DNA of 64,000 bases from Desulfobacterales bacterium (GTDB taxonomy: Bacteria; Desulfobacterota; Desulfobacteria; Desulfobacterales; UBA2245): NCBI GenBank assembly GCA_040771865.1, contig JAXGZF010000007.1, positions 1-64,000 on the forward strand. Reading direction: 5' to 3'. The notes beneath the pieces were generated by a model that did no database searches, had not been told where the DNA came from, and was given only the letters and a program-made list of their open reading frames with translations. Numbering within the stretch: the first letter of the stretch is position 1; every line of letters begins with the position of its first letter. The translations under genes were made by a program, and so were the position numbers. Of the stretch, positions 2 to 14,918 are shown in pieces.

Positions 2-205
2 TACGTGCCCGGCGACAGCCTGGTAATGATGGACACCTCGAATCTGGACGACGAGGAAACGCCCGATCCGGCCGCCACGGCCATGGAGAAGAATTTCTGG
101 CTGAGGGAGTTTCTGATCACCCGGGCACAGGGCGAGCGCAATCCGTTCGAACCCACGGAAAACATCCGGATCACGATCACGGATGAAGAGACCGAGGAGG
201 CTTGA
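2..205 (+). CDS. 3' end of an upstream gene (partial); probably the C-terminus of a large secreted cargo protein
   Basis: The frame is open from the window edge (YVPGDSLV...) to TGA at 203-205 and is followed by a terminator. The acidic tail contains FWLREFL...NPFEPTENIRITI. The cargo identity is inferred from the neighbouring export genes only. Confidence 0.6.
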   Translation, partial: YVPGDSLVMMDTSNLDDEETPDPAATAMEKNFWLREFLITRAQGERNPFEPTENIRITITDEETEEA

Positions 206-237: not shown

Positions 238-283
238 AAAGGGAACCCGAGTCGCTCTCGTCGGCCAGGGTTCCCTTTTCTTT
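238..283 (+). terminator. Rho-independent terminator
   Basis: Inverted repeat AAAGGGAACCC (238-248) / GGGTTCCCTTT (268-278) followed by TCTTT, about 30 nt after the stop codon. Confidence 0.7.
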
Positions 284-549: not shown

Positions 550-2547
550 ATGGCCGATTGCCAGACAAAACCAAAAATTATCTGGGATGAGCGCGGGGCA
601 AATCATGTCCGGACGGATTCCTGCACCATTGTCGGGTCGCGCGAAGAAATTTCCCTGCTTTTCGGCAACGAACCGGGAGGGAATTCGGGCGATGTCCGCT
701 TTACCAATCGGGTCATTCTCAATCCCTTTACCGCAAAGCAATTGTCGTCCGTCCTGAACGGGGTGATCCGGGATTACGAAGCCGTATTTGGCCCGCTGTC
801 GGAGACGAGTCCGCATTCGACTCAGGACGATGCGACCAGGGAGCAAAAATCATCCTTTCTTTTTCAACTGGTCAAGGAGCTGGATGTTTCCGTCGGATAC
901 GAGCGGTCTTTCAAAATCCTTGAAAGGTCTCTGCTGTCCGACCGCTTTCTGCTGGGCATCAGCAAGAAGGAAATCGAATACAAGGCCCAGGACCGGATCA
1001 TCCATGCCTGCGAGCAGATGGGAATGCCGCAAAGTCTGCTGGAGATCTTCGGCCAATGCCTGGTTGAGGCCAATTACGTCCATTTCGGTTTCGAAGATGA
1101 TGGCGCATCCTGCATTTACAAGGTTTATGTTGAATTCTGGGACCGCATCAAAGAGACGCTGAAAAACCCCCAGAATGCCGCCGGGCCCCACCTGCTGCAC
1201 CTCGGCTTCAAGTGGAACCCCTTCGAACCGGAGAAAAAAGCCATCACGCGCTATACCTGGCACCCCTGGCTCACCGAAGTGCAGATCCTCGACAGGGTAA
1301 GGGCCATAGCCGATCCCGGCAGGCACGGCCATGTCTTTGAAGCAGCGAAGGCGCTGATAAACATTGCCGCGGCGCGCATGCCCCACCAGGATGTTCTTTA
1401 CCTGGAGGTCACCGAAGCGGACAACCCCAGAAAATCGTTTGACATCAACGTATACCGGGGCGGGCTTCTGGTCGGGGAACTCTATCCCTTACTGGCCAGG
1501 CTCGGCCAGCATTATAACATTCCCTATGCCCCGTTTCACGAGCTGTACAATCAGGTCAAGACGGAAAGATTCGGCCACCTTTCAGGCGGCATCAACCGGG
1601 ACGGCAAGGACTTTTGCACCGTATATTACGGTGTGGCGCCGATCCAGGAAGATCGGACTCGCCGGACCGTCTCTACCGGCTTGGGCCGGCTCCGGCATTC
1701 GGACGATCCTTTCTCGGTCGAGAAAACCGATGCCCAGGCCGGCGTTCTTCTTGAACGGGTCAGAAACCTCGGTGTGCCGTTCGGATTCGAACGTTCCTTC
1801 AAGGTTACTCAGAACATCTTTCTCCCGGATCGCTTCCTGGCCGGCTTCGAACGCAAGGAGGTGGTACAGCGGGAACGCGTTCTGGAAATCTGCCGGAACA
1901 TCAACATGCCGGCCGATTTTCTGGAGCGCTTCGAGGAGAAATATTCTGCCGCAAACATCGTTCTTTTCGGCTTTGAAAGGAACGAAAAAGGCTTCATATA
2001 CAAGGCCTATCTCGAGTTCATTGACAAACTTCAAACAGCAGTCGATGTGAACCCGGACGACCCCGAACCTTTTGAGATGTTTACCGGCTTCAAATGGGAG
2101 GGCGACGATCCGTCGCGCAAAGTTCAGACCCGCTATACCTGCTTTCCGTCCTATGTCTTGAAAGACATGGCCGATCAGACGGCGCGGTTTTTCCTCCCGA
2201 CGACAAAGACCGAACCCGCCTCAATCGTCCACGGAATACTCGATCTGGCCTCGCACAGGGCCGGGCCGCGGGAATTTCTCTATTTCGAAGCAAACGAGGC
2301 CGGCACTGACAGATCCTCGTTTTCCATCAATCTTTACCGCGCCGGGCTGCGCATGGCGGAGGCATACCCCCTGCTGCTGGACATGACGCGTTATTACGCG
2401 ATTCCGAAGGATGCATTCCACCGGGCCTATGAGGCATCCAAAACACAGATTCTGGGCAATGTTGCCGGCGGCATCGACCGGCAGGGAAGAAATTTTCTAA
2501 CCTTTTATTACGCCCACAGGGGAAGTTCGAGAAAGGGGAAGCCCTGA
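550..2547 (+). CDS. DUF3467 domain fused to two tandem ABBA-type (LynF/TruF/PatF-like) prenyltransferase-like domains
   Basis: aa 1-85 (IIWDE...REEISLLFG...RVILNPFTAKQL...YEAVFGPL) clearly align with the ORF at 6152. An internal duplication of period about 296 aa follows (YERSFK..DRFLLG / FERSFK..DRFLAG; IYKVYVEF / IYKAYLEF; GFKW; GGI.R.G..F..YY). The prenyltransferase call rests on recalled similarity. Confidence 0.6.
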   Translation: MADCQTKPKIIWDERGANHVRTDSCTIVGSREEISLLFGNEPGGNSGDVRFTNRVILNPFTAKQLSSVLNGVIRDYEAVFGPLSETSPHSTQDDATREQKSSFLFQLVKELDVSVGYERSFKILERSLLSDRFLLGISKKEIEYKAQDRIIHACEQMGMPQSLLEIFGQCLVEANYVHFGFEDDGASCIYKVYVEFWDRIKETLKNPQNAAGPHLLHLGFKWNPFEPEKKAITRYTWHPWLTEVQILDRVRAIADPGRHGHVFEAAKALINIAAARMPHQDVLYLEVTEADNPRKSFDINVYRGGLLVGELYPLLARLGQHYNIPYAPFHELYNQVKTERFGHLSGGINRDGKDFCTVYYGVAPIQEDRTRRTVSTGLGRLRHSDDPFSVEKTDAQAGVLLERVRNLGVPFGFERSFKVTQNIFLPDRFLAGFERKEVVQRERVLEICRNINMPADFLERFEEKYSAANIVLFGFERNEKGFIYKAYLEFIDKLQTAVDVNPDDPEPFEMFTGFKWEGDDPSRKVQTRYTCFPSYVLKDMADQTARFFLPTTKTEPASIVHGILDLASHRAGPREFLYFEANEAGTDRSSFSINLYRAGLRMAEAYPLLLDMTRYYAIPKDAFHRAYEASKTQILGNVAGGIDRQGRNFLTFYYAHRGSSRKGKP

Positions 2548-2551
2548 GAAA

Positions 2552-3499
2552 ATGAACCTGACGGCGCCACCGGACGCTCAGGCCATGATCGGCGGCAGGA
2601 TCGATTTCAGCAGATACTGCGTGATTTCGATATGGTTCGGTTGCAACAACAACTGCACCATCTGCATGCTCGGAGCGGTGAAAAGCGGCCTGCCGGCGAT
2701 CAGCTACGAGGGATACCGAAAGGTCGTCATCGACATCATGCGAGACGGCCGGTTCGAGAACCTGATTCTCTCGGGGGCGGAAGTGACCACCTTTGACGAC
2801 TTGGATCGCTACGTGCGGTGCGCAGCGTCCCTGGGATGGTTCAAAAGAATCCAGATCCAGACCAACGGCAGGCGGTTGCGTGATCCGGAATATCTGGATC
2901 ATCTGATCGATTGCGGGGTGAACGAGTTTTTTGTCAGCATTCACGGGCTCGCGGAAACCCATGACGCCGTCACCCGCGTTCCGGGATCATTCGGCGAAAC
3001 CCTGGCTGGGCTGAGAAATCTTTCCGGCCGCAAGGCCAATGTCATCAGCAATACGGTTTTGACCCGGAACAATTTTTCGGAAATTCCAGGCCTGGTGCGT
3101 TTCCTCTGCGCGAAGTGCGTCAGCGAGATTCATTTATGGAACTATTTTCCCATGGAATCCACCGACAAACGGAATCTGCTGGTGCCTCTCGGGGATTTGA
3201 TGAACATAGTGCCGGAACTACGGCAGATCGTTCAGGCCGCCGGCAAGCCGCTGGTGTTGAAAAGCTTTCCCCTGTGTCTGGCCGTCGAGGCGCCGGTTTA
3301 CCTGGACAGTGTATTTCCGGTGACGGTGCTTCCGGATCTCTTCTGGAAACAGTTCGGGGAGTGCGGGTTCGGAAGGTGCGTGCACCGCGAGGCCGGCGCG
3401 TGCCGTACAAAGGAGTGCTGGGGCCTTTGCAGCGCCTATCTGGCAAAATACGGCGACGAAAAAACCCTGCTTCGGCCGATAACGCCGCCCCGATTCTAG
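2552..3499 (+). CDS. Radical SAM protein with C-terminal Cys-rich extension
   Basis: CNNNCTIC (CxxxCxxC), SGAEVT (GGEP-like), IQTNG, VSIHG...HDAVTRVPGSF; C-terminal CGFGRC...C...CWGLC..Y...YG. Confidence 0.9.
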   Translation: MNLTAPPDAQAMIGGRIDFSRYCVISIWFGCNNNCTICMLGAVKSGLPAISYEGYRKVVIDIMRDGRFENLILSGAEVTTFDDLDRYVRCAASLGWFKRIQIQTNGRRLRDPEYLDHLIDCGVNEFFVSIHGLAETHDAVTRVPGSFGETLAGLRNLSGRKANVISNTVLTRNNFSEIPGLVRFLCAKCVSEIHLWNYFPMESTDKRNLLVPLGDLMNIVPELRQIVQAAGKPLVLKSFPLCLAVEAPVYLDSVFPVTVLPDLFWKQFGECGFGRCVHREAGACRTKECWGLCSAYLAKYGDEKTLLRPITPPRF

Positions 3500-3568
3500 C
3501 AGGATCCTGATAGAAGCCGCGTTTTTCAGGCGCCGTAAGCCCGCACAAAACTGAAAGGAACCGGAGAC

Positions 3569-4429
3569 ATGCCTTCGATCGAATACGAAAGCGCCCAAGA
3601 GACATTTTACGATTTTTGCCTGTGGCCGTACCGGCCGTCCGTTCCGTATGAGAACAAGTTCAAATCGGCCAATCTGCTGTTTCATTCCTTTGAGGTCGAA
3701 GGAATGGACGACCGGGGCGTCGACATGGTGCAGGCCATTCGGAAAGAAATCGGCCATTCCCGCACGGTATGGGGAGTCAAACGCCTTGGCGAGGATATTC
3801 GGTGGGAATTCTATTTTTATGACTATCGGAGAAAGGAAAGGGAAACCTCCGTCGGCAGAATCCTGAAAACGTGCAGACCTTTTTTCGCTTGCGATATCGG
3901 GATCAACGAGAATTTTCATTATTTCATGTTCTCCATCGACGTCGATCATGACCTCGTTACCGGTTCGAAGGACCTGGACGAAATTCATCTGTATATCGGC
4001 AACCCGGGCAGCAGTGTTTCCTCCGGGATCTGCTATTCCATGAAAAAGCGGCACACGCGTCTGGAGAACTTCTACTTCTTTTTCGACGCCCGAAATCAGT
4101 GGAAGGAAATCCTGGCAAAGCTGTCCTGTTCGGTTCATTACGATGCCGCCCGGTGGAAAGCCGAGCGCATCCTCTGGCCGGAACTTCAGGACTGCAAGAT
4201 CATCGTTGTCGCCAACAAGCAGGAGAACGATGCGGTTTATTTTTCGGGCATCCATGTCGATCAGCTGATCTTTTTTCTCAAGAGAATGCACTATAACCCG
4301 GAGCTGGTGACCTTTGTAGAAACCAATCGGTTCATGCTGGACCATCTGCGCTATGACATCGGGTTCGATTACCGGATTGAGGGAAACGAGATGAAGATAT
4401 TGAAAAGCGCTTATTACGGGGTGTTCTGA
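3569..4429 (+). CDS. Hypothetical protein, aromatic-rich; possible prenyltransferase-barrel fold
   Basis: 286-aa ORF with a GGAG RBS; its stop overlaps the next start (TGATG). The fold is inferred from the strand pattern only. Confidence 0.75.
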   Translation: MPSIEYESAQETFYDFCLWPYRPSVPYENKFKSANLLFHSFEVEGMDDRGVDMVQAIRKEIGHSRTVWGVKRLGEDIRWEFYFYDYRRKERETSVGRILKTCRPFFACDIGINENFHYFMFSIDVDHDLVTGSKDLDEIHLYIGNPGSSVSSGICYSMKKRHTRLENFYFFFDARNQWKEILAKLSCSVHYDAARWKAERILWPELQDCKIIVVANKQENDAVYFSGIHVDQLIFFLKRMHYNPELVTFVETNRFMLDHLRYDIGFDYRIEGNEMKILKSAYYGVF

Positions 4430-6042
4430 TGATGCCGGAGAATGAGGAACACGTAGTTCTCGTCAATGCCGAAGGCGAGGATCTCATCGATGGCGACGGC
4501 CGAATCGCAACCCTGGAAAAGCTTGCCGCCCACCTTCAGGGCCGCCGCCACCGGGCGATTTCGGTCTTCATCTTCTCATCGCGCGGAGAGGTGATGCTGC
4601 AGAAGCGGGCCGCGCACAAATACCACAGCGCCGGCCTGTGGTCCAATACCTGCTGCACCCACCCGAGGCCCCACGAAATTCCGGCCGACGCGGCCCGGCG
4701 AAGGCTGCATGAGGAAATGGGCCTCAGTTGCCCGATCGAGGAGGTTTTCACCTTTTCCTATTCGGCGGATGTAGGCAGCGGGTTGATAGAAAATGAATTC
4801 GACCACGTTTTTTTCGGGTTTTGCGACGCCTCTCCGGCAGTCAATCCGGATGAGGCGGCTGACTGGAGATGGACGCCCATCGATGAGTTGCGTACTGAGC
4901 TGGTCGCTTCCCCCGATCAATACGCGCCCTGGTTGCGGTATTGTTTTCCGGCAGTTCGAAGCCATTACTACGAGCGCCGACCCGAGGCGACCCGCGACCC
5001 GGCAGGCGACGCAGGTCGGGACCCTGTCTTCGATTATCTCTGCGTGGATGATTTTCTTCAGGATATCGTCGCTGCCCGGTCCCTGGCCACGGCTCTCGAA
5101 CTGGGCCTCATCGACCGAATCGGCCGCCATCCCGGCGTCACCCGTGAGGATATGAGCATCGCACTGCGGATCGATGCCAGAGGCATGGCGCTGCTGATCG
5201 GCCTGCTCAAGGACAACCGGGTCATCGAAGAAAACGACGGCCTCCGGCTCACCAGGTTGTTCGAAAAGGCCATGGCCTTCCGGGATGTTCTGGAGGCCAG
5301 GATCGCTTTCGCGCATGTTGCCCTGCCGGATTTTTCCCGTCTTTTTACGCCGCTGATCGCGTCGCCCGATCAGTTTGCCCGCCATGCGAAAATTTTTGAA
5401 TTTTTCGGCTACAACCGCTGTTCCGAAAACAGCCCGACGGCCCGGGAACTGACCAGCCGCTGGATGCGGATCACCACCTCCCTGACGAAGTACGAATCCC
5501 GGGTCTGTCTGAAGCATCATGACTTTAGTCCTTATCGGCGTATAATGGACATCGGCGGAAACAGCGGTGAGTTCATGCTTCGGGTGTGCCGGAAACACCC
5601 GGATATTCACGCGACTGTTTTCGATCTTCCCCTGGTTTGCGATCTCGGAATGACCCATGTTCATCGCGAGCCGGAAGCGTCGCGGATCACGTTTGTCAAG
5701 GGCAATGCCCTGCAGGATGAATTTCCCGGCACGTACGACCTGATCTGCTTCAAATCCATGCTCCACGACTGGCCCGAAAAACAGGCGGAATATTTACTTG
5801 CCAAGGCGAGCCGTTCTCTACAGCCCGGCGGGACCCTGCTGGTTTTCGAAAGGGGCGCAATCGCGGACGAAAACCCGCCTCGGTTCTATTCCACCATCCC
5901 CCTGTGCCTGTTTTTTCGGTGTTTCCGATCTCCTGAGTGGTATGCGGGGCACTTGCGCCGGCTCGGCTTTCAGAACATCCGGATCGAGGAAATCGACATG
6001 GACATGCGGTTTTCTCTGGTAACGGGAACCGCAGCCGCATAA
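4429..6042 (+). CDS. idi: Type 1 isopentenyl-diphosphate isomerase fused to a Methyltransf_2-type SAM methyltransferase
   Basis: N-terminus: HRAISVFIF, LQKRA..KYHS.GLWSNTCCTHP, RRLHEEMG, ENEFDHVF (Nudix IDI-1). C-terminus: wHTH-like dimerisation region, MDIGGNSGE, VFDLP, KGNAL, KSMLHDWP. Confidence 0.9.
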   Translation: MMPENEEHVVLVNAEGEDLIDGDGRIATLEKLAAHLQGRRHRAISVFIFSSRGEVMLQKRAAHKYHSAGLWSNTCCTHPRPHEIPADAARRRLHEEMGLSCPIEEVFTFSYSADVGSGLIENEFDHVFFGFCDASPAVNPDEAADWRWTPIDELRTELVASPDQYAPWLRYCFPAVRSHYYERRPEATRDPAGDAGRDPVFDYLCVDDFLQDIVAARSLATALELGLIDRIGRHPGVTREDMSIALRIDARGMALLIGLLKDNRVIEENDGLRLTRLFEKAMAFRDVLEARIAFAHVALPDFSRLFTPLIASPDQFARHAKIFEFFGYNRCSENSPTARELTSRWMRITTSLTKYESRVCLKHHDFSPYRRIMDIGGNSGEFMLRVCRKHPDIHATVFDLPLVCDLGMTHVHREPEASRITFVKGNALQDEFPGTYDLICFKSMLHDWPEKQAEYLLAKASRSLQPGGTLLVFERGAIADENPPRFYSTIPLCLFFRCFRSPEWYAGHLRRLGFQNIRIEEIDMDMRFSLVTGTAAA

Positions 6043-6151
6043 AACCGCATAAAAGATTGATGTTACCGAAAAAAAAGCATATAAAGAGAACGTTTACAGC
6101 TCGTTTGGATCAACTCAAACCACTTCAAAAATCCAAAAAGGAGGAATACCC

Positions 6152-6490
6152 ATGGCAGATCAGAAAGATGAGAATGTCGATAAAACAGGGCAGGCGGCCG
6201 GCCAGCCCCGAATCGTCTGGGATGACGCCAACATGCGAAGCGTTTACTGCAATGTTTCCAATGTTGCCGGCGGTCGCGAAGAAATCGTGCTGCTTTTCGG
6301 CATGAACCAGGCCTGGCATGCGGGGCAGAAAGAGATCAAGGTCCAGCTTTCCGACCGGATCGTGATGAGTCCCTTTGCCGCCAAACGGCTGTCACTCCTT
6401 TTGAACAACGTGCTGGCGGATTATGAAAAGCGCTTCGGAAGACTGGACATTGGTGTTCCCCAGGCACCGCCATCGACCACCATCCAGTAA
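6152..6490 (+). CDS. DUF3467 family protein
   Basis: IVWDDANMRSVYCNVSNV.GGREEIVLLFG...RIVMSPFAAKRL...YEKRFGRL; strong RBS AAGGAGG. Confidence 0.85.
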   Translation: MADQKDENVDKTGQAAGQPRIVWDDANMRSVYCNVSNVAGGREEIVLLFGMNQAWHAGQKEIKVQLSDRIVMSPFAAKRLSLLLNNVLADYEKRFGRLDIGVPQAPPSTTIQ

Positions 6491-6498
6491 AATACCAG

Positions 6499-6527
6499 GG
6501 GGCTTCCGGGCCGGAAGCCCCTTCTTT
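6499..6527 (+). terminator. Intra-operon hairpin/terminator after DUF3467
   Basis: GGGGCTTCCGG (6499-6509) / CCGGAAGCCCC (6511-6521) followed by TTCTTT. Confidence 0.65.
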
Positions 6528-6574
6528 CATCGCTTCGACAAACAATATTCTGTGATTACAGGCACGGCTCGCAT

Positions 6575-8482
6575 ATGAACCAGAACACTGCAGATCGCAA
6601 CGAAACTCGTTTGCTGGAAAGTCCGGACGGATCGGCGTCGAGACCGGTATCCGACCAAGATTCTCTGTTCTGGCAACATTTTGCTCAGGCCAAGACTCCC
6701 AAGGCCTTCTGCCAGAGCTGGCTGCCCCTGCAATGCGGCATGTTGAGAAGCGTCAAGCACGCCATTGTGCTGATAGGAAACCCCGACCAAGGTCCTTACA
6801 CTCCGGTCGCGGTATGGCCGGATGCCAAACTCAGCATGAGCCACCTTGCCGGAACCGCCGAACGCTCCATCCGCGAAAGACGCGGCCTGCTGGTGGACAA
6901 AAACGGCGGCCCCCCTGCCGTCAAGGGCGCTTCCGAAACCTGCCAGATTGCCTATCCCATCGAGGTGGCCGGCAAGATTCACGGCGTGGTCGTCATGGAA
7001 GTCGAAGCGCCTTTCAAACAGGACGTCCAGGCCCTGATGCGCCAGCTCCACTGGGGCGCCGCATGGCTCGAGGTTCTCATCCGGCGCAGGGAGTCGGCCC
7101 GGAACGCGGAAGAAAGCGAACGGCTTCGCAACGTCATGGACCTGACGGTCAGCATGGTGGAGCATGATCAATTCTATCCCTCCGCCATGGCCTTGGTCAC
7201 CCGTCTGGCCACGGTGCTGGACTGCGACCGGGTCAGCCTGGGAGTGCTCAAGGGCAACCATGTCAAGGTCGCGGTGTTGAGCCACAGCGCGGATTTCAGC
7301 GAACAGACCAACCTCGCCCGGGCCATCGGTCTGGCCATGGACGAAGCCGTCGATCAGAAGGCCGCGATCAACTACCCTGCCGGACCCGAAGAGAGCCCCC
7401 TTTTCACGCGTGCCCACGCGGAACTTGAACGGCTGATGGGCTCCGGTTCGATTCTGACCATTCCTTTGGTGGAAAACGAGTGCATCATCGGCGCATTGAC
7501 CCTTGAACGCTCCGCGCAAAAGCCTTTTGACCGACAGACGGTGGAATTCTGCCAGAGCGCGGCCGGCATTCTGGCGCCTATTCTGGAGATCAAGCGGCGG
7601 GAGGATCGCTGGCTGATCCGCAAGGCGTCCGAATCCCTGTCGATACAACTGAAACGATTTCTGGGTCCGGGATATCTGATCCGAAAGCTGGTCGCCGCCG
7701 CACTGATTGTCCTGGTCGTATTTTTCGCTCTGTTCAAGGTCGATTATCGGGTAACCGCGGACAGCGCCATCGAGGGCGAAGTCAAAAGGGCGATCGCCGC
7801 CCCGTTCAACGGCTACATCAAAGAGGCGCCCATCCGGGCCGGGGACGTGATCATGAAAGGACAGGTAATCTGCCTCCTGGATGACCGGGACCTGAAGCTG
7901 GAACGTTTCAAATGGGCCACCGAACGGGAGCAGACGACCAAACAGTACCACGAAGCCATGGCCAAGCACGATCGGCCCAACATCCAGATCACGAAGGCCA
8001 AGATCGGTCAGGCCGAGGCACAGATCGATCTGCTGGATGAACAGCTTTCACGCATCAAGATGACGGCCCCCTTCGATGCGGTGGTGATCAGCGGAGATTT
8101 GAGCCAATCGCTGGGCGCCCCGGTCGAGCGGGGCCAGGTGCTCTTCGAGGTGGCCCCTCTGGACGAGTATCGCGTGATCATCGAGGTCGACGAACGGGAT
8201 ATCGCCGACATTCAGGTGGGTCAGAAAAGCGAATTGATCTTTCCCTCCATTTCCGGAGAGACCTTTCCCTTTATCGTGCGGAAAATCACGCCGGTAACCA
8301 TTTCCAGGGAGGGTCGCAACTATTTCCGCGTGGAAGGACAGCTCGAGAAGGCGACCGAGCGCCTGCGGCCCGGCATGGAAGGTGTGGGAAAAGTCACCGT
8401 GGATCGGCGGCGGCTGATCTGGGTGTGGAGCCACAAGGCAATCGACTGGGTACGCCTCAAACTGTGGCAATGGATGCCCTGA
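6575..8482 (+). CDS. GAF-domain HlyD-family membrane fusion (periplasmic adaptor) protein
   Basis: GAF-like region (CDRVSLG...AMDEAVDQ...ILTIPL...IGALTLER), one TM helix, lipoyl half-motifs (APFNGYI...GD; APFDAVVISGD...GAPVERGQVLFEVA), LRPGMEG. Confidence 0.85.
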   Translation: MNQNTADRNETRLLESPDGSASRPVSDQDSLFWQHFAQAKTPKAFCQSWLPLQCGMLRSVKHAIVLIGNPDQGPYTPVAVWPDAKLSMSHLAGTAERSIRERRGLLVDKNGGPPAVKGASETCQIAYPIEVAGKIHGVVVMEVEAPFKQDVQALMRQLHWGAAWLEVLIRRRESARNAEESERLRNVMDLTVSMVEHDQFYPSAMALVTRLATVLDCDRVSLGVLKGNHVKVAVLSHSADFSEQTNLARAIGLAMDEAVDQKAAINYPAGPEESPLFTRAHAELERLMGSGSILTIPLVENECIIGALTLERSAQKPFDRQTVEFCQSAAGILAPILEIKRREDRWLIRKASESLSIQLKRFLGPGYLIRKLVAAALIVLVVFFALFKVDYRVTADSAIEGEVKRAIAAPFNGYIKEAPIRAGDVIMKGQVICLLDDRDLKLERFKWATEREQTTKQYHEAMAKHDRPNIQITKAKIGQAEAQIDLLDEQLSRIKMTAPFDAVVISGDLSQSLGAPVERGQVLFEVAPLDEYRVIIEVDERDIADIQVGQKSELIFPSISGETFPFIVRKITPVTISREGRNYFRVEGQLEKATERLRPGMEGVGKVTVDRRRLIWVWSHKAIDWVRLKLWQWMP

Positions 8483-8526
8483 CCGGCTGATGGCGGCAAA
8501 AAGCAAAAGATGAAGACCGAACGCCC

Positions 8527-10674
8527 ATGACCGATTCCCTCTACAGCCCTTCCTGGTATCGTGTGGCAAGCCTGAAGCCACGCCTTCGGGGACATGTGCA
8601 GATTCATCGCCACCACTACCGCGGCGAACTCTGGTACGTGCTCCAGGATCACCTGTCCGGCCGCCTTCAGCGGTTTACGCCTATGGCCTATCAGCTCATC
8701 GGAATGATGGACGGCAAGCGGACCGTGCGGGAGATCTGGGAGCATGCCTGCGCCACGCTTCAAGCCGACGCGCCGACCCAGGAGGACATGATCCGCATCC
8801 TGAGCCAGCTCCACGCCGCCGATGCCCTGCAGTCGGACGTGGTTCCAGACACCGCCGAAATGCTGAAACGGTTCGAAAAGCAGCGCTACAAGAAGTGGAA
8901 GCAAAACCTGCGCAGCCCGTTGTTCATGCGGTTTCCCCTGCTCGATCCGGAACGGTTTCTGATCAGATTTCAATTCCTGGTACACCCCTTTTTCAGCTGG
9001 TGGGGACTGATCCTCTGGCTGGCGGTGGTAAGCGCGGGCGTCTTTCTGGTCGGCGTTCACTGGTCCGAGCTGACGCTGAACATGACCGACCGCATCCTCT
9101 CTCCCGGCAACCTGGTGGTCATGTGGTTGACCTTTCCTTTTCTCAAGGCCTTTCACGAATTCGCCCACGCCTTTGCCGTCAAGCTCAAAGGCGGCGAGGT
9201 GCACGAGATGGGGATCATGATGCTGGTGTTCACCCCCATCCCCTACGTGGATGCATCGTCCGCTTCCGGATTCCGGGAAAAGCGCAGCCGCGTGTTCGTG
9301 GGCGCGGCCGGACTGATGGTGGAAATCTTCATCGCGGCCCTGGCTGTTTTCGCCTGGGTCAACATGGAACCCGGCCCGGTCCGCTCCGTGGCCTACAACG
9401 TCATCTTCATCGCCGGCGTCTCATCGCTGTTCTTCAACGGCAACCCGCTGCTGCGCTATGATGCATACTACGTTCTGTCAGATGTCCTGGAAATTCCGAA
9501 TCTCGGGACCCGAGGCATCCGATACATGCTCTATCTGATCCAGCGCTACCTTCTCGGCATCAAGCAGGCCGAACCGCCCCTTTACAGCCAAGGCGAGCGC
9601 TTCTGGTTCGCTGCATATACCATTTCTTCGACCATCTACCGGCTCTTCGTCTATGCGGCCATCATCCTCTTCGTAGCCAGCAAATTTTTCTTCATCGGCG
9701 TTCTTTTCGCCTGCGTGGGAGTGGTAAACATGTTCGCCCTGCCGGCTTACAAAGCCGTCAAATTTCTATCCACTTCGCCGATGCTGGCCCGCACCCGTCC
9801 CCGGGCGGTTCTGGTGACAGGACTGATCGTCGTCCTTGGAGCGGCCATGATCGGCATCGTTCCGGTTCCCCTGGCCACCCTGACCGAAGGCGTGATGTGG
9901 CTGCCGGAAGAAACTTTCGTACGTGCCGGAACTGATGGGTTCGTAGAACGCATCCTCGCCGAGCCGGGCAAACCGGTGAAACGCGGTGACCCGCTGGTCG
10001 AATGCTCCGACCCGCTGCTGCCGGCCCAGATCCGTCTCCTGGAGGCTCAGAAGCGCGAGATGGAAGTAGTCTACGATACGCATTTGATTTCCGACAAGGT
10101 CAAGGCCGAAATTGCCAGAGAAGAAATCGAACACATTGCCGTCAAGCTCGAAGATGCCCGGGAAAGACTGGGTGATCTGACGATCCACAGCAGCACGGAC
10201 GGAATCTTCATTCTGCCGATGGCCGACGATCTGCCGTCCTCGTTTGTCCAGCGCGGCCGGTTGATCGGCTATGTGGTGAGCCGTTCCACGGTGTCCGCCC
10301 GGGTCGTGGTTTCCCAGGCAGATGTGGATCTGGTGCGGCAGCGAACCCGTCAGGTCAGCGTGCGGCTGCCGGAGCAGCTGTCGAAAATCCTGCCGGCGGA
10401 GCTGCAGCGTGAGGTTCCGGCGGCCACGGATCAGCTCCCGGGCATGGTTCTGAGCCAGGAAGGCGGGGGCAAGATCGCGACCGACCCCCGCGAGGGTTTC
10501 GGCAACAAGGCGTTTCAGAAAATCTTTCTTTTCGACATCACCCTCCCCTCCCATGCGGGTATCTATCATGTCGGCGGAAGGGTGCATGTCCGGTTTGATC
10601 ACGGAATGGAGCCGATCGGTTTTCGATGGTACAGGGGGTTGCGGCAGCTGTTCCTGAAGAGGTTCAATGTATAG
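8527..10674 (+). CDS. M50 (site-2) metallopeptidase with N-terminal PqqD-like domain and C-terminal HlyD-like domain
   Basis: HEFAH (HExxH), FNGNPLLRYDAYY, several TM helices; N-terminal MDGKRTVREIW...ILSQL; C-terminal lipoyl/coiled-coil adaptor pattern. Confidence 0.85.
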   Translation: MTDSLYSPSWYRVASLKPRLRGHVQIHRHHYRGELWYVLQDHLSGRLQRFTPMAYQLIGMMDGKRTVREIWEHACATLQADAPTQEDMIRILSQLHAADALQSDVVPDTAEMLKRFEKQRYKKWKQNLRSPLFMRFPLLDPERFLIRFQFLVHPFFSWWGLILWLAVVSAGVFLVGVHWSELTLNMTDRILSPGNLVVMWLTFPFLKAFHEFAHAFAVKLKGGEVHEMGIMMLVFTPIPYVDASSASGFREKRSRVFVGAAGLMVEIFIAALAVFAWVNMEPGPVRSVAYNVIFIAGVSSLFFNGNPLLRYDAYYVLSDVLEIPNLGTRGIRYMLYLIQRYLLGIKQAEPPLYSQGERFWFAAYTISSTIYRLFVYAAIILFVASKFFFIGVLFACVGVVNMFALPAYKAVKFLSTSPMLARTRPRAVLVTGLIVVLGAAMIGIVPVPLATLTEGVMWLPEETFVRAGTDGFVERILAEPGKPVKRGDPLVECSDPLLPAQIRLLEAQKREMEVVYDTHLISDKVKAEIAREEIEHIAVKLEDARERLGDLTIHSSTDGIFILPMADDLPSSFVQRGRLIGYVVSRSTVSARVVVSQADVDLVRQRTRQVSVRLPEQLSKILPAELQREVPAATDQLPGMVLSQEGGGKIATDPREGFGNKAFQKIFLFDITLPSHAGIYHVGGRVHVRFDHGMEPIGFRWYRGLRQLFLKRFNV

Positions 10675-12664
10675 AGACATGACCCATCCGTGGGGGTTGG
10701 ACGGCGTTTATCCCGAACGGGAGGAACGTCGCAGCTCCGGAAAGGTTCACGGCCGTTCGACCGGTCTGGAAGGCTTTCGCGCCCGCCGGCGGCGGCCTAG
10801 TCCTAAAAGCGGCCAATGGATCGTTGAGGCCGTCAAGACAGGCCAATCCACACTGAGCGATGCGACCGACGAGGAAATTCTCGAGGCGGCCCGCCAGTTG
10901 CGACCTCTGCTGAAAAAGCAGGGACTGACGCAGGAACTGGTGGGCCGGGCCTTCGGGCTGGTACGCGAAGCCTCCTGGCGGCACTTGCACATGGCGCATT
11001 TCGATGTCCAGTTGATCGGCGGATGGGCGCTGCTCAACGGCATGGTGGCGGAGATGGAAACCGGGGAAGGGAAAACCCTGGTCGCCTCCCTGCCGGCCTG
11101 TACCCTGGCGCTGGCCGGAGTGCCGGTGCACATTATTACGGTCAACGATTATCTGACCGCCCGCGATGCCGACTGGATGTCTCCTCTGTACAAGGCACTA
11201 GGGCTGACTGTGGGGACCATTGTTCACGGCAAGGACCCGGCAGCCCGGAAGGAAGCCTATCGCTGCGATATCACCTACTGCACCAACAAGGAGGTGGCTT
11301 TCGATTATCTGAGAGACCGGCTTGTGCTTTCGGACCGTCCCAGTCAGCTGCGTCTTTCGGTGGAGCGGTTGTATGGCGAGACGTCGCGCCTCTCCAGGCT
11401 GGTGATGCGCGGGCTTCACTTCGCCATCGTGGATGAGGCCGACAGCGTGCTGATTGACGAGGCCCGGACCCCTCTGATCATTTCCAGCCAGTCCGACAGC
11501 CTTTACGGCGAGAATGTCTACCGGCTGGCCATGGAGCTGGCCGGATCACTGGTCGATGGAAAGGATTTTCTGGTTTCCGAAACCGATCGCATGGTGGAGC
11601 TGACGCCGGCGGGCCGGCTCAAAATCGATGGCACAGATTGGGCCGAAGCCAGCCCCAACATCAATGAACAGCAGAAGGAGCAGCTCGTCCGTCAGAGCCT
11701 GACCGCATTGCATCTGTTCAAGCGGGACAAGCAGTACCTCGTCAAGGACGGCAAGGTTCAGATCGTCGACGAGTATACCGGACGTCTGATGGCGGACCGT
11801 TCCTGGGAGATGGGGCTTCACCAGCTCATCGAGGTCAAGGAGGGATGCGAGGTGACCCTGCCCAAGCAGACCCTGGCGCGCATCAGTTATCAGCGGTTTT
11901 TCAGCCGATACCTGGGTCTTGCCGGCATGACCGGAACCGCTCGGGAAGTGGCCGGTGAGCTCTGGTCGGTCTATCGTATGCCAGTGATCTCCATCCAGAC
12001 CAACCGACCTGTCCGGCGCCGGTATCTGCCCGACCGGATCCATGCCTCGTCGGATGAAAAATGGAGAGCTGTGGTGCAGACTATTTCACGGGAGCATGCC
12101 GAGGGCCGGCCGGTGCTCGTGGGAACCCGGTCCGTCGAAGCCTCCGAGCATCTGAGCGGCCTTCTGGAACAGGAAAATCTGCCCCACAAGGTGCTCAATG
12201 CCCGGCAGGACAAGGAGGAAGCGGAAATCATCGCCATGGCCGGAAATGTGGGACGGATCACCGTGGCCACCAACATGGCCGGACGGGGGACGGATATCCG
12301 CCTGAGCGAGGGTGTTACGGACCTGGGCGGGCTCTTTGTCATCGCCACCGAACGCCATGAAGCCCAGCGGATTGATCGACAGCTCTTCGGCCGCTGCGGC
12401 CGGCAGGGAGATCCCGGCGCCTGCGTCGCCATGGTTTCTCTCGATGACGAGCTGGCCACCGTGCATGCCAAGGGAGTGCCCAGGTGGATCGGTATCCTGG
12501 CGGCCAAAACCGGCATCGAATTCCTGTCGAGATGGGCGGGCGCCCTGGTATTCTGGTACGCACAACAATCGGCGCAGCGCCAGTACGCGCGCATACGTCG
12601 CAACCTGCTGAAAATGGATGACCGGATCGGCGAGTCCCTCGCCTTTTCGGGTCGACCCGAGTGA
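10667..12664 (+). CDS. Secondary SecA-like (SecA_DEAD) ATPase, lacking the canonical C-terminal wing/scaffold
   Basis: EMETGEGKT, TVNDYL..RD, FDYLRD, IVDEADSVLIDEARTPLIIS, GMTGTA, VATNMAGRGTDI, RIDRQLFGRCGRQGDPG; only 665 aa. Confidence 0.9.
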   Translation: MYRDMTHPWGLDGVYPEREERRSSGKVHGRSTGLEGFRARRRRPSPKSGQWIVEAVKTGQSTLSDATDEEILEAARQLRPLLKKQGLTQELVGRAFGLVREASWRHLHMAHFDVQLIGGWALLNGMVAEMETGEGKTLVASLPACTLALAGVPVHIITVNDYLTARDADWMSPLYKALGLTVGTIVHGKDPAARKEAYRCDITYCTNKEVAFDYLRDRLVLSDRPSQLRLSVERLYGETSRLSRLVMRGLHFAIVDEADSVLIDEARTPLIISSQSDSLYGENVYRLAMELAGSLVDGKDFLVSETDRMVELTPAGRLKIDGTDWAEASPNINEQQKEQLVRQSLTALHLFKRDKQYLVKDGKVQIVDEYTGRLMADRSWEMGLHQLIEVKEGCEVTLPKQTLARISYQRFFSRYLGLAGMTGTAREVAGELWSVYRMPVISIQTNRPVRRRYLPDRIHASSDEKWRAVVQTISREHAEGRPVLVGTRSVEASEHLSGLLEQENLPHKVLNARQDKEEAEIIAMAGNVGRITVATNMAGRGTDIRLSEGVTDLGGLFVIATERHEAQRIDRQLFGRCGRQGDPGACVAMVSLDDELATVHAKGVPRWIGILAAKTGIEFLSRWAGALVFWYAQQSAQRQYARIRRNLLKMDDRIGESLAFSGRPE

Positions 12665-12673
12665 CGGAGTTAA

Positions 12674-13510
12674 ATGATGTTCAAGCGCATGACAACCCTA
12701 TTACAAGCCGCGATTTTCCTGTTGATGCTTCTTGGCGGGGCCGCCGGATTTGCGTCAGCCGACAGTTCCGAGCCCGAGTTCGACGGGCTCATCGAACCAT
12801 ACCGGGTGGCGGAAGTGGGCAGTGAGGTGCCCGGCATCCTCGACAGCGTCAAGGTCGAACGCGGCGACATGGTCAAAGCGGGCCAGGTGGTGGCGACGCT
12901 GCGCTCGGGCGTCGAGGCGGCCAATCTGGAGCTGGCCAAAGCCCGGGCGGAAATGGATGCCAATGTCCAGTTGAAGCGTTCGGCTCTGGAATTTGCGAAA
13001 AGAAACAGCCAGCGCATGAAAGAACTGTATGATGCCAAGGCCCTGGCCTTTCAAAAATGGGACGAGGTGGAAACCCAGCGGATCATGGCTGAAAAGGAAC
13101 TGACGGTTGCCCTGGAACAGAAACAGCTCTTCGAGCTGGAACACCGACAGGCCGATGAACTGCTTAGACGCAAGACGATTCAGAGCCCGTTAACAGGCGT
13201 GGTTATGGAGCGCTACCTTTTCAAGGGGGAGTATGTTGAAAACAATCCGATCCTCAAGATCGCTCAGATCAATCCGTTAAACGTAGAAGTGGTGATGCCG
13301 GTTTCACAGATCGGCAGAATCAAAATCGGCACAAAAGCCACGGTAAAGCCCGAAGACCCCTTGGGCGGGACGCGTCAGGCGGTCGTCACCATCGTGGACA
13401 AGGTGATGGACGCGGCCAGCGGCACCTTCGGAGTGCGTCTGGAAATCCCCAATCCAATGCATGAAATTCCGCCAGGCTTGAAATGCAGGGTGCTTTTCCA
13501 AAAACCCTGA
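12674..13510 (+). CDS. Efflux RND/HlyD-family periplasmic adaptor subunit
   Basis: N-terminal signal peptide, VERGDMVKAGQVVA, coiled coil, IQSPLTGVV, DAASGTFGVRL...PGL. Confidence 0.9.
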   Translation: MMFKRMTTLLQAAIFLLMLLGGAAGFASADSSEPEFDGLIEPYRVAEVGSEVPGILDSVKVERGDMVKAGQVVATLRSGVEAANLELAKARAEMDANVQLKRSALEFAKRNSQRMKELYDAKALAFQKWDEVETQRIMAEKELTVALEQKQLFELEHRQADELLRRKTIQSPLTGVVMERYLFKGEYVENNPILKIAQINPLNVEVVMPVSQIGRIKIGTKATVKPEDPLGGTRQAVVTIVDKVMDAASGTFGVRLEIPNPMHEIPPGLKCRVLFQKP

Positions 13511-13586
13511 TTCCACCCTGCCCCGGTCCTCCGGCGCCTGGAGGAAAATTGATCATTATGAAGCCATCAAGCAGAGGAAATCGAAA

Positions 13587-14918
13587 ATGAGCCCTAAAAC
13601 AGCCCTTATGCTGATCATCACCGCTGTTTGGCTGCCCCTGATCGTTCCACCTCAGGAGGCTGCGGCCACGGAGACGCATGAGCCACAAATCTACACCCTG
13701 GAAGCAACCATCGCCGAAGCTCTGAAAAACAACTGGGACCTCAAGGCCCTGGAAGAAAAATTAACCCAGGCCCAGGAGGTGAAAAAACAGGCCAGAGCTG
13801 ATTTCCTGCCCCGTTTAAAGACCAGTTACTCCTATACCGGACTCGATGAGCCCTCCAATTACGAATCGAGCTATGGCGGAAACATCGCCGTCAGCTCCAG
13901 AGAGAGTTTCCAGTGGCGCAGCACCGTAACACAGCCGATTTTTGCGGGATTCGGTCTGATCAGCGCCTATCGACTCGCCGAACTGGGCATCGACCAGTCT
14001 GAAATGCAAATCGAGTTGAACAAGCTGGATCTCGCCCTGAAGGTCAAGGAAGCCTATTTCGGTGTGCTGGTCATGGATAAAACCGTCGAGGTGGCCCTGA
14101 AAGAAGTCGAATCTCTCGCCTCCAATGCCGAGGTGACCCGAAGCTACTACAATGCCGGGGTGGTGCCGGTCAACGATCTGCTCAAGGCGGAGATGGAGCT
14201 TGCCGACGCCCAGCAAAAACTGGTCCAGGCCCGAAACCAGGCGGCTCTGGCCCGCTCTGCCCTCAACATCATCCTGGCCCGCCCGGTCAACGCGGCGGTC
14301 GATCTCGAGGATATCCTGGTGTATACCACCGAGACGGCTGTCTTCGAAGACAGCATCGGTATTGCCCTGAAAAACCGGCCGGAAATCCGGCTCATCGACA
14401 TCGATCTTCAGCGCGCCGAGCAGAAGATCAGGCTAACCAGGCGCGGATACTATCCGGAGGTCAACCTGGCGTATGACTACATCAAAGAGGGTGACTCGGC
14501 CGACGTGTCCGGAAGCCTATATCATGACGAAAAACGGTGGCAACTCGCGGTGGCCGCTTCCTGGACCTTGTGGGAATGGGGTAAAACCCACTTTGCCGTA
14601 AGGCAGGAAGAAAGCGCTCGTGAAGAGCTCATCAAGACCCGCAAGGCCATTGAAGACAACGTTCGGCTGGATGTGCGGGAAGCCTTGCTGTACATTTCAA
14701 CCGCCGAACAGAACATCCCCACCACCGAGAAGGCCGTGTTGCAGGGTGAGGAGAACCTGAGAGTCACCCAGGAAGGCTACCGTGCCCAGGTCAATACCGT
14801 CTCCGACGTGTTGGATGCCCAAGCCTTGCTGACCCAGGCCAGAGTCAACTATTACAAGGCCATGTACACGCACAGCCTGGCCAAAGCCCAGCTGTCGCGG
14901 GCCATGGGAACCTATTGA
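13587..14918 (+). CDS. TolC-family outer membrane channel
   Basis: Signal peptide, YTLEATIAEALKNN, ARADFLPRL, QPIFAG, ALKNRPEI, YYPEVNL, DVLDAQ; duplicated OEP pattern. Confidence 0.9.
   Translation: MSPKTALMLIITAVWLPLIVPPQEAAATETHEPQIYTLEATIAEALKNNWDLKALEEKLTQAQEVKKQARADFLPRLKTSYSYTGLDEPSNYESSYGGNIAVSSRESFQWRSTVTQPIFAGFGLISAYRLAELGIDQSEMQIELNKLDLALKVKEAYFGVLVMDKTVEVALKEVESLASNAEVTRSYYNAGVVPVNDLLKAEMELADAQQKLVQARNQAALARSALNIILARPVNAAVDLEDILVYTTETAVFEDSIGIALKNRPEIRLIDIDLQRAEQKIRLTRRGYYPEVNLAYDYIKEGDSADVSGSLYHDEKRWQLAVAASWTLWEWGKTHFAVRQEESAREELIKTRKAIEDNVRLDVREALLYISTAEQNIPTTEKAVLQGEENLRVTQEGYRAQVNTVSDVLDAQALLTQARVNYYKAMYTHSLAKAQLSRAMGTY

Follow-up and report, generated by a model that had tools for sequence, protein, structure and literature searches.

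A DUF3467 protein with two predicted prenyltransferase barrels, encoded ahead of a SecA-like export module in a Desulfobacterales bacterium

What is the 665-residue protein encoded by the open frame at 550–2547 (+ strand) of contig JAXGZF010000007.1 from a Desulfobacterales bacterium (assembly GCA_040771865.1), and on what does it act? The window, that is, the whole stretch of DNA analysed here, comprises the first 64,000 nucleotides of this contig, and an initial annotation made from its letters had read the protein as carrying tandem prenyltransferase domains similar to the F enzymes of cyanobactin biosynthesis. Its homologues (261 at E ≤ 0.001 among 7,999 candidates scored in a word-indexed search) are called ‘DUF3467 domain-containing protein’ or ‘hypothetical’ where the source gives a name. 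Our results suggest a three-domain protein composed of DUF3467 and two prenyltransferase (PT) barrels, the fold of the ABBA prenyltransferases, and our preferred reading, at a probability of about 0.45, is a prenyltransferase with two sites, tethered through DUF3467, for the tailoring of a protein or peptide that is exported.

The DUF3467 domain (residues 7–84; 568–801, + strand) scores above the Pfam gathering threshold (PF11950, E = 1.5e-11, 44.6 bits against a cut-off of 25) and is the sole Pfam domain of the protein, the two repeats behind it giving no Pfam match at E ≤ 0.1 and the whole protein matching 0 NCBIfam families. These repeats are a tandem duplication far beyond chance: residues 96–365 align with residues 391–664 in BLASTP with 92 of 264 positions identical (35%), two gaps and E = 8e-59. 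The paired motif described in the initial annotation was recovered by script, with ERSFK at residues 118 and 414, RFL at 132 and 428 and a Glu-to-Arg spacing of 14 in both repeats, and the ten short β-like segments it had named were placed at residues 117, 131, 176, 189, 216, 231, 283, 296, 342 and 355, their second-repeat counterparts lying within 413–649. Searches of the PDB sequences with the single 665-residue sequence (best E 0.67, to an unrelated protein) and with its full-length profile (best E 2.6) gave no credible match; the same holds for the DUF3467 profile (best E 0.21, to RNase H2B), and in the ESM Atlas DUF3467 found only unnamed clusters, at 0.80; that the domain may be SecB-like is speculation.

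AlphaFold2 modelling of the whole protein, run on an alignment of 60 sequences, gave a mean predicted local distance difference test (pLDDT) score of 86.4 and a predicted template modelling (pTM) score of 0.79, with low confidence confined to residues 1–14, 84–92, 364–385 and 660–665, which are the chain ends, the linker after DUF3467 and the linker between the barrels. In the model the DUF3467 domain consists of strands at 24–29, 34–40 and 50–57 and a long helix at 59–80. Barrel 1 (residues ∼93–365; 826–1644, + strand) has ten strands by DSSP (116–124, 127–138, 176–183, 188–195, 214–223, 226–237, 283–289, 292–300, 340–348 and 354–360), each of the ten β-like segments falling in one of them, and barrel 2 (residues ∼387–661; 1708–2532, + strand) has ten matching strands. 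Each repeat is predicted to form five hairpins with helices between, which is consistent with the PT barrel as described by Bonitz et al. (2011; PMC3227686), with ten antiparallel strands in five α-α-β-β repeats.

Comparison of the model with solved structures points the same way. Foldseek returned 84 matches in the PDB at E ≤ 0.001; among the matches listed, all are ABBA prenyltransferases, including FunA, PriB, PagF, 5- and 6-DMATS, CdpNPT, KgpF, LimF, PatF and DciF. The VIA-align matches listed are likewise all ABBA prenyltransferases, 49 of the 50 falling on barrel 1 and one on barrel 2. The structural matches listed also take in a PirF-type enzyme. Barrel 1 (model residues 92–368) is matched best by CymD (6os5_B, Z = 17.0, root-mean-square deviation (rmsd) 3.8, 260 residues aligned), and scores 16.5 and 15.8 with the indole prenyltransferases 5-DMATS and PriB; among the peptide prenyltransferases KgpF and PatF reach a Z-score of 14.4 each, PagF 13.9 (5tu6_A, rmsd 4.5, 231 aligned), LimF 13.9 and DciF 13.7. 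Barrel 2 (model residues 387–661) is best matched by AmbP1 (5z46_B, Z = 13.1, rmsd 3.9, 227 aligned). Modelling followed by Foldseek had been set beforehand as the check on the proposed fold, and it bore the proposal out, both repeats emerging as PT barrels and no other fold appearing; that both do fold in this way is, from the predicted structure, close to certain. The protein appears, as far as the model goes, to represent a previously unannotated branch of the ABBA superfamily.

A shared fold is no proof of function, and the family is without a characterised member, which leaves room for other diphosphate chemistry such as a terpene-cyclase-like or hydrolytic reaction or the transfer of a non-isoprenoid group. 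We regard this as very improbable, since prenyltransferases are, according to Bonitz et al. (2011; PMC3227686), the only enzymes in which the PT barrel has so far been seen, and since an isopentenyl diphosphate isomerase (IDI) is fused into the operon, as described below. Of the original proposal of a divergent two-barrel peptide or protein prenyltransferase, the fold is what the model carries; prenyl transfer and a peptide or protein acceptor we infer.

In a barrel-only alignment of 24 diverse sequences (both window barrels, one barrel of the related locus L003 and 21 single-barrel open reading frames (ORFs) of other phyla), K122, R132, K191, Y193, K221, W222, R294, S296, F297, N300, Y302, G342, G347 and F355 are invariant, and E118, S120, G180, E195, P239, D298, H343 and Y359 are kept in at least 90%. 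Among the 60 tandem homologues both barrels hold the conserved set in 59–60 of 60, which for barrel 1 comprises E118, S120, K122, R132, K191, Y193, E195, K221, W222, Y235, R294, S296, D298, N300, Y302, H343 and Y359; barrel 2 keeps E414, S416, K418, R428, K485, Y487, E489, K515, W516, Y529, R588, S590, N594, Y596 and Y653. In the AlphaFold2 model the conserved residues occupy alternating positions of strands 1, 2, 4, 5, 8, 9 and 10, and since alternating strand positions in a barrel place residues on one face, this face is inferred from the alternation to be the barrel interior. K122, R132, K191, Y193, K221, R294, Y302 and Y359 and their barrel-2 equivalents all lie at such positions, their interior geometry being predicted. 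The lack of a basic diphosphate pocket would have told against the enzyme as first proposed; both barrels keep invariant Lys, Arg and Tyr residues on their strands, candidates for the lining of such a pocket. The barrels differ from each other at H178/L472, Y176/I470 and W237/C531, plausibly acceptor-side positions. Judging by this conservation, both barrels are probably competent, with different acceptor pockets, and prenyl transfer by at least one of them is, on the modelled fold, a fairly probable activity.

The barrel family is large and occurs in several forms. An exhaustive profile search puts its size at 1,180 clusters (50% identity) with E ≤ 0.001, of which 961 pass 1e-10 and 629 pass 1e-30; two matched stretches occur in 18 of the 150 clusters listed. 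DUF3467 with two barrels (678–708 residues) is found in L003–L008 and L010, and DUF3467 with one barrel (∼350–440 residues) in many lineages including one Methanobacteriota bin. A barrel-only form (∼270–300 residues) occurs in three cyanobacteria and, among others, in Devosia, Endozoicomonas and Kistimonas. In 182 of 317 family proteins the first barrel has 80 or more residues ahead of it. The hosts of the 66 related loci are mainly Thermodesulfobacteriota, Planctomycetota, Acidobacteriota and Pseudomonadota, with three cyanobacterial. In a FastTree phylogeny of 153 barrel domains, drawn from all locus ORFs and random samples of stored proteins (local Shimodaira–Hasegawa-like support, arbitrary root), all 30 barrel-2 domains lie in one set of 39 rows (support 99) and all 30 barrel-1 domains in a set of 41 rows (support 96), each set including some single-barrel proteins as well. 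This separation indicates that barrels 1 and 2 are ancient paralogues that have diverged together, rather than the outcome of a recent internal duplication.

This history bears on whether one or both barrels could be non-catalytic and serve in binding, as a scaffold or as a chaperone for cargo or a lipid carrier, with the chemistry left to the third barrel and the radical S-adenosylmethionine (SAM) enzyme encoded downstream. Tandem catalytic domains often retain one degenerate copy, and barrel 2 of the window has S592 and N637 where most homologues have Asp (47 of 60) and His (50 of 60), respectively, substitutions that are also present in its clade; PatF, reportedly an inactive cyanobactin prenyltransferase, is moreover among the structural matches (Z = 14.4). 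Set against this is the full charged and Tyr set, including Glu at the position of PagF Glu51, in both barrels of 59–60 of 60 homologues, a conservation of buried charges that would be unexpected for a mere scaffold, and the maintenance of barrels 1 and 2 as separate conserved lineages. We therefore consider a non-catalytic role quite unlikely.

At the level of sequence, a thread leads to the peptide prenyltransferases. The barrel-only profile, searched against 177,635 distinct PDB sequences, placed PagF first (two entries, E 0.024), followed by 9vtd, an enzyme of the LynF/TruF/PatF family (E 0.03), and by PirF (E 0.41), the matches aligning on E-x-S-x-K...R-F-L in β1–β2. HMMER sets the profile ‘lglErSfKllegkllkdRfll’ opposite residues 38–79 of PagF chain 5tty, ‘SLEASCKIESDKLIASRFLL’, which puts E118 on PagF E51 and R132 on R65, with E414 and R428 at the same spacing; we take PagF Glu51 to be the catalytic base and Arg65 a diphosphate ligand. 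The PagF start motif cited in the initial annotation is borne out by this alignment. These E-values count only together with the fold, and the 24 barrels gave no match at E ≤ 10 to the prenyltransferase models in Pfam and NCBIfam. The description of the protein as cyanobactin-F-like is hence tenable in the sense of a distant relative, by its fold and by a β1–β2 motif with Glu and Arg 14 residues apart, and not in the sense of a family member by any curated model. Nor is the context that of a cyanobactin cluster, there being no PatA/PatG-type proteases or E precursor among the ten genes of the operon. The relation to DMATS is one of structural similarity, no Trp_DMAT Pfam match having been found.

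The ten genes of the operon (550–14918) all lie on the + strand with gaps of −8 to 109 bases, and the first four form an enzyme module. The gene at 2552–3499 (+ strand) encodes a radical SAM enzyme with CxxxCxxC at residues 31–38 and a Cys-rich C-terminus (PF04055, E = 2.1e-17), whose best NCBIfam match, HxsC4 (E = 6.4e-27), is far below the cut-off. It is followed at 3569–4429 (+ strand) by a gene for a 286-residue protein with no Pfam or NCBIfam match, which, folded on 25 homologues, gave an AlphaFold2 pLDDT of 92.6 and, among the Foldseek matches listed, only ABBA prenyltransferases (AmbP1 5z44, E = 6.3e-8); in VIA-align, auraA (8y9d_A) is matched with Z = 13.5 and rmsd 4.2 over 248 of the 286 residues. 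The operon is thus predicted from the models to encode three PT barrels of two families. A sequence relationship of the third barrel to barrels 1 and 2 was considered and rejected (hhalign probabilities of 0.8% and 1.1%; BLASTP E 0.013, confined to the last strands).

The fourth gene (4429–6042, + strand) encodes a type 1 IDI (residues 4–171; NF002995, E = 2.2e-44, 151.3 bits against a cut-off of 127; PF00293) fused to a Methyltransf_2-type methyltransferase (residues ∼200–537; PF00891), with E. coli IDI (E = 1.9e-23) and DtpM (E = 5.2e-19) as relatives in the PDB. The initial annotation had drawn independent support from an adjacent IDI. The isomerase is real and belongs to the same operon; it is encoded not by the next gene but by the fourth, as the N-terminal half of the product, and the argument holds for the lineage of the window only, with IDI present in two of the 66 related loci.

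The same enzymes can be read as a small-molecule pathway, which is the main rival to tailoring of an exported polypeptide. Here the three barrels, the radical SAM enzyme, the methyltransferase and IDI would build a prenylated, methylated aromatic or indole-type metabolite, and the export module and the giant proteins described below would be co-regulated only or would export the product. The top Z-scores are to indole and aromatic enzymes (CymD 17.0, 5-DMATS 16.5 and PriB 15.8 for barrel 1; auraA 13.5 for the third barrel), yet Z-scores favour larger targets, and the sole sequence-level matches are peptide prenyltransferases. The methyltransferase belongs to the natural-product Methyltransf_2 class, its nearest solved relatives being DtpM and DnrK, and no precursor peptide was found; genes that would form a scaffold (non-ribosomal peptide synthetase, polyketide synthase, amino-acid pathway) are, however, also missing from the operon.

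The remaining six genes, all on the + strand, form an export module. The first (6152–6490) encodes a free DUF3467 protein of 112 residues (PF11950, E = 7.5e-22), to which the DUF3467 domain of the 665-residue protein is 37% identical. It is followed by genes for a GAF-HlyD periplasmic adaptor (6575–8482), a fusion of a PqqD-like domain, an M50-type HExxH membrane protease and HlyD (8527–10674; daptide_HExxH, E = 4.1e-39, below cut-off), a truncated SecA-like ATPase (10667–12664; SecA_DEAD, E = 4.7e-103, with SecA_PP_bind and P-loop_SecA), a third HlyD-type adaptor (12674–13510) and a TolC-like outer membrane factor (OEP; 13587–14918). The arrangement at 6575–13510, with a truncated SecA_DEAD protein beside three HlyD-domain proteins, of which one carries a peptidase domain and another a sensory domain, corresponds to the locus defined by Kamneva, Poudel & Ward (2015; PMC4452313). 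A housekeeping SecA is encoded elsewhere in the genome, on contig C5. Both the export module and the gene for the 665-residue protein are single-copy in this genome; no second export module was found in it.

RNA-library contigs from two metatranscriptome runs cover 6109–12427, including 6109–6598, which shows only presence in the RNA libraries; none from these runs fell on 550–6042, which, for contigs, has no bearing on whether that stretch is silent. A perfect GC-rich palindrome with a 10-bp stem (GGGGCTTCCGG/CCGGAAGCCCC) is located at 6499–6521, nine bases past the stop codon of the free DUF3467 gene and within the operon; it may act in RNA stability or attenuation and so set how much of the small subunit is made. 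The free DUF3467 protein was considered as a precursor like those of peptides made by the ribosome and modified post-translationally (RiPPs) and rejected, the tails after the domain being short and not conserved.

How regularly the two modules travel together was assessed in those 39 of the 66 related loci that are flanked on either side by 4 kb or more. The radical SAM enzyme and the third barrel are present in 28 of these, joined by the methyltransferase in 25, and at least three of four export-module genes in 13. The barrel gene lies inside or beside the export module without the other enzymes in L020, L025 and L064, and SapC is present in L025, L053 and L065. Extra radical SAM genes, two to four within or beside the enzyme module, were seen at L009:12992-18139 and L012:3152-5568; in L009 four of them stand between the third barrel and the methyltransferase. 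The extra types include methylthiotransferase-like (UPF0004) and, in L009, B12-binding ones.

Very long genes recur in these neighbourhoods. An open frame of at least 1,500 residues occurs in 20 of the 39 well-flanked loci and a LEPR-type leader in 14, a count made without a shuffled control; as a rough yardstick, the 2.98-Mb genome of the window has 21 frames of at least 1,300 residues, or ∼0.15 per 21 kb. That genome contains three LEPR-XLL giants in a row (G000:C8:3-72521, minus strand) of >7,505, 9,444 and 6,782 residues, and the N-termini of the three are nearly identical (MGIARNLRRLA...MMEPLEPR(I/L)LLSAD). The order in the Devosia loci is methyltransferase, barrel, third barrel, radical SAM enzyme, SapC and LEPR giant, with no export module within reach. 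Giants downstream of the enzyme module in L050, L052, L053, L055 and L065–L068 (Alphaproteobacteria and Kistimonas) carry the motif MA(Y/F)PF(R/K)SEG..GRP at the extreme N-terminus, ∼45–60 residues ahead of LEPRLLL, and its aromatic residues would be candidate acceptor sites.

This recurrence of giant LEPR-type genes beside the barrel gene in distant phyla speaks against a small-molecule pathway, and the fusion to DUF3467, a subunit of the export module, is hard to explain by such a pathway yet common in the family. Cyanobacterial and some other homologues that stand alone, without export module or partners (L033, L034 and L038), are in turn more easily accommodated by it. On balance we hold the synthesis of a small molecule to be unlikely, if the strongest of the alternatives.

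Across a sample of 401 genomes of the phylum, in which related genomes are not independent and several are fragmented, six were found to carry the barrel family and 26 the M50-HlyD marker; the marker is present in four of the six and in 22 among the remaining 395. The export system has the enzyme module as a facultative accessory. Co-folding of the 665-residue protein with the N-terminal 90 residues of one LEPR-XLL giant from its own genome gave an ipSAE interface score of 0.00 in two runs, without controls, and speaks neither for nor against binding.

The DUF3467 domain, the third barrel and the downstream export module change the likely substrate, and the following mechanism is proposed for the DUF3467-tethered enzyme. 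Each barrel would bind a prenyl diphosphate centrally, with K122, R132, K191, Y193, K221, R294, Y302 and Y359 and the barrel-2 equivalents as candidate ligands, ionise it and pass the prenyl cation to a nucleophile, E118 and E414 acting as Glu51 does in PagF. The enzyme would work with the co-transcribed radical SAM enzyme, third PT barrel and IDI-methyltransferase fusion, IDI supplying dimethylallyl diphosphate and the methyltransferase modifying the donor or the product. Since the exporter's small free subunit consists of this same DUF3467 module, the domain may dock the enzyme onto the export machine or onto a client of that machine. What is prenylated, before or during export, would then be a polypeptide bound for export, most likely a giant protein with a LEPR-XLL leader or the leader itself, and the two barrels, differing at the acceptor side, may modify two sites or add two groups.

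Several observations weigh against this proposal. The PagF link is not significant by itself (E 0.024) and covers just two strands, barrel 1 scores higher with the small-molecule indole enzymes CymD, 5-DMATS and PriB than with the peptide enzymes, and the nearest solved relatives of the methyltransferase (DtpM and DnrK) act on small molecules. Barrel 2 of the window carries the S592 and N637 substitutions discussed above, IDI is found in only two of the 66 related loci (L003 and L013), no precursor-like short ORF was identified, and the free DUF3467 proteins are without a conserved core-like tail. The association with export is also incomplete: enzyme partners and export module are both missing from nine of the 39 well-flanked loci, the M50-HlyD marker is missing in two of the six barrel-positive genomes of the phylum sample, and the barrel family occurs in only four of the 12 genomes with an M50-HlyD match at least 36% identical.

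In its widest form the proposal would amount to bacterial protein prenylation by soluble ABBA-type barrels, rather than by CaaX- or ComQ-type enzymes, in which giant LEPR-XLL surface proteins are lipidated at the handover to a SecA-like, ABC-less, TolC-linked exporter and the client is recognised via a DUF3467 module common to the exporter. Several prenyl groups would come from the two active barrels and the third; in view of the IDI-methyltransferase fusion they might be methylated, and they would serve to anchor the protein or in its maturation. We put this forward as a tentative and on the whole doubtful extension.

The DNA upstream of the operon holds the remains of another giant gene. Positions 2–205 (+ strand, frame 2) are its 3′ end, cut by the contig start, with the last 67 codons and a stop at 203–205; they align with the end of a 3,260-codon open frame just upstream of the orthologous operon in L003, a 91%-identical relative. 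In L003 the end of that frame (L003:9300-9783), as read from the aligned DNA, has a zinc-protease-like motif, HEIGHALGYDD, ∼100 residues before the C-terminus; the truncated copy in the window does not reach back to it. A 2,897-codon open frame without a LEPR leader runs to the contig end at G000:C6:402748-411438 (+) and begins with at least four repeats of ∼45 residues (YYLA.NPDVAKAVN.G.IGSGWEHYVNWG..EGR); it may be the front of the gene ending at window 2–205, the join being unassembled. A hairpin (GGGAACCC...GGGTTCCC) followed by a T-run at 241–283 (+ strand), read from the sequence and conserved in L003, is the probable terminator of the giant gene; it is not in the consensus terminator scan because its loop exceeds eight bases, and the counts from the promoter and terminator consensus scan equal those of shuffled sequence. 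Between the giant gene and the operon, at 293–418 (no strand assigned), lies a 126-bp dispersed repeat with 87 blastn matches in the genome and short inverted ends (AACAGGGT...ACCCTGTT). The site lacks the repeat in L003, and the element looks like a miniature inverted-repeat transposable element or a repetitive extragenic palindromic element. Summed DNA-contig depth is ∼1,170 in the bin 1–500, against 6–15 in the bins beyond.

The fold and the probable chemistry of the 665-residue protein are already known; its architecture, family and context are not. New are the tandem two-barrel form, the DUF3467 fusion, the sequence thread to PagF, the size of the family, the finding that the barrels are old paralogues, and the IDI fusion. 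ABBA prenyltransferases are prized as biocatalysts for late-stage peptide lipidation and, to our knowledge of the literature surveyed, are single-barrel enzymes of secondary metabolism. The present family adds a sizeable unannotated branch of ∼1,180 clusters at 50% identity, spanning many phyla and one archaeal bin, together with a natural two-barrel architecture and an operon with three predicted PT barrels, and is tied by gene order and a common domain to an exporter of some of the largest known bacterial proteins. We know of no experimental work to date on the SecA-like/M50-HlyD/TolC export machine. Should this link prove functional, it would provide the first indication of prenylation in such giant proteins, and the leader peptide and the enzyme would offer a handle on client recognition by this export route.

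A literature search, which left bioRxiv supplements outside its range, found no description of such DUF3467/two-barrel enzymes beside giant-protein exporters, and searches on DUF3467, on LEPR-XLL and on ABBA prenyltransferases with radical SAM enzymes, IDI and methyltransferases returned only unrelated papers. In the accessible texts on tandem or didomain ABBA barrels no two-barrel enzyme was found, ‘tandem’ in the accessible part of PMC3227686 referring to the five structural repeats of one barrel. The word ‘prenyl’ does not occur in the giant-protein preprints examined, among them the accessible part of a preprint from 2026 that deals with the LEPRxLL giants in a phototrophic consortium and mentions SapC and TolC neighbours.

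Among known systems, the DMATS-type indole prenyltransferases (CymD, 5-/6-DMATS, PriB, IptA, FgaPT2 and FunA) give the top structural scores (Z 15–17 over 250–266 aligned residues), and FgaPT2 has a barrel lined with Lys, Arg and Tyr. Unlike the present protein, they are single-barrel enzymes of 350–430 residues with small-molecule acceptors, and their Pfam model, Trp_DMAT, finds no match here. The ABBA enzymes of the NphB/CloQ/AmbP1 type share the fold, AmbP1 being the best match of barrel 2 (Z = 13.1) and of the third barrel (Foldseek E = 6.3e-8), but differ in genomic context, and there is no PTase_Orf2 Pfam match in the present case.

The cyanobactin F enzymes (PagF, PirF, LynF/TruF/PatF, KgpF, LimF and DciF) resemble the window barrels in having a ten-stranded barrel of ∼270–300 residues without the long N-terminal extension of the fungal enzymes (Z 13.5–14.4), and are the only sequence-level matches, through E-x-S-x-K-x9-R-F-L with identical Glu-Arg spacing; a polypeptide acceptor, as for these enzymes, is probable for the 665-residue protein. 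They differ in that identity in the structural alignments is only 9–15%, with no Pfam or NCBIfam model match, and in that the 665-residue protein has two barrels per chain together with DUF3467. Its operon, moreover, lacks cyanobactin proteases and an E-type precursor and provides a radical SAM enzyme, a third barrel and a methyltransferase as partners, and the hosts of the barrel family are mostly non-cyanobacterial (three of the 66 loci are cyanobacterial).

With RiPP tailoring clusters such as that of the daptides, the locus has in common a radical SAM enzyme, a PqqD-like domain (RiPP recognition element) and an M50/HExxH protease; unlike those clusters, it has no short precursor gene that could be found, its likely clients are thousands of residues long and the scores all lie below the curated cut-offs. 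The export half, at 6152–14918, with its truncated SecA_DEAD protein, three HlyD-domain proteins and OEP, is like the secondary, type-I-secretion-like SecA_DEAD locus of Kamneva, Poudel & Ward (2015; PMC4452313), in the accessible part of which DUF3467 and enzymes of the prenyltransferase fold are unmentioned. Compared with the locus as described there, the window adds a four-gene enzyme module ahead of the exporter in the same operon, sharing DUF3467 with it.

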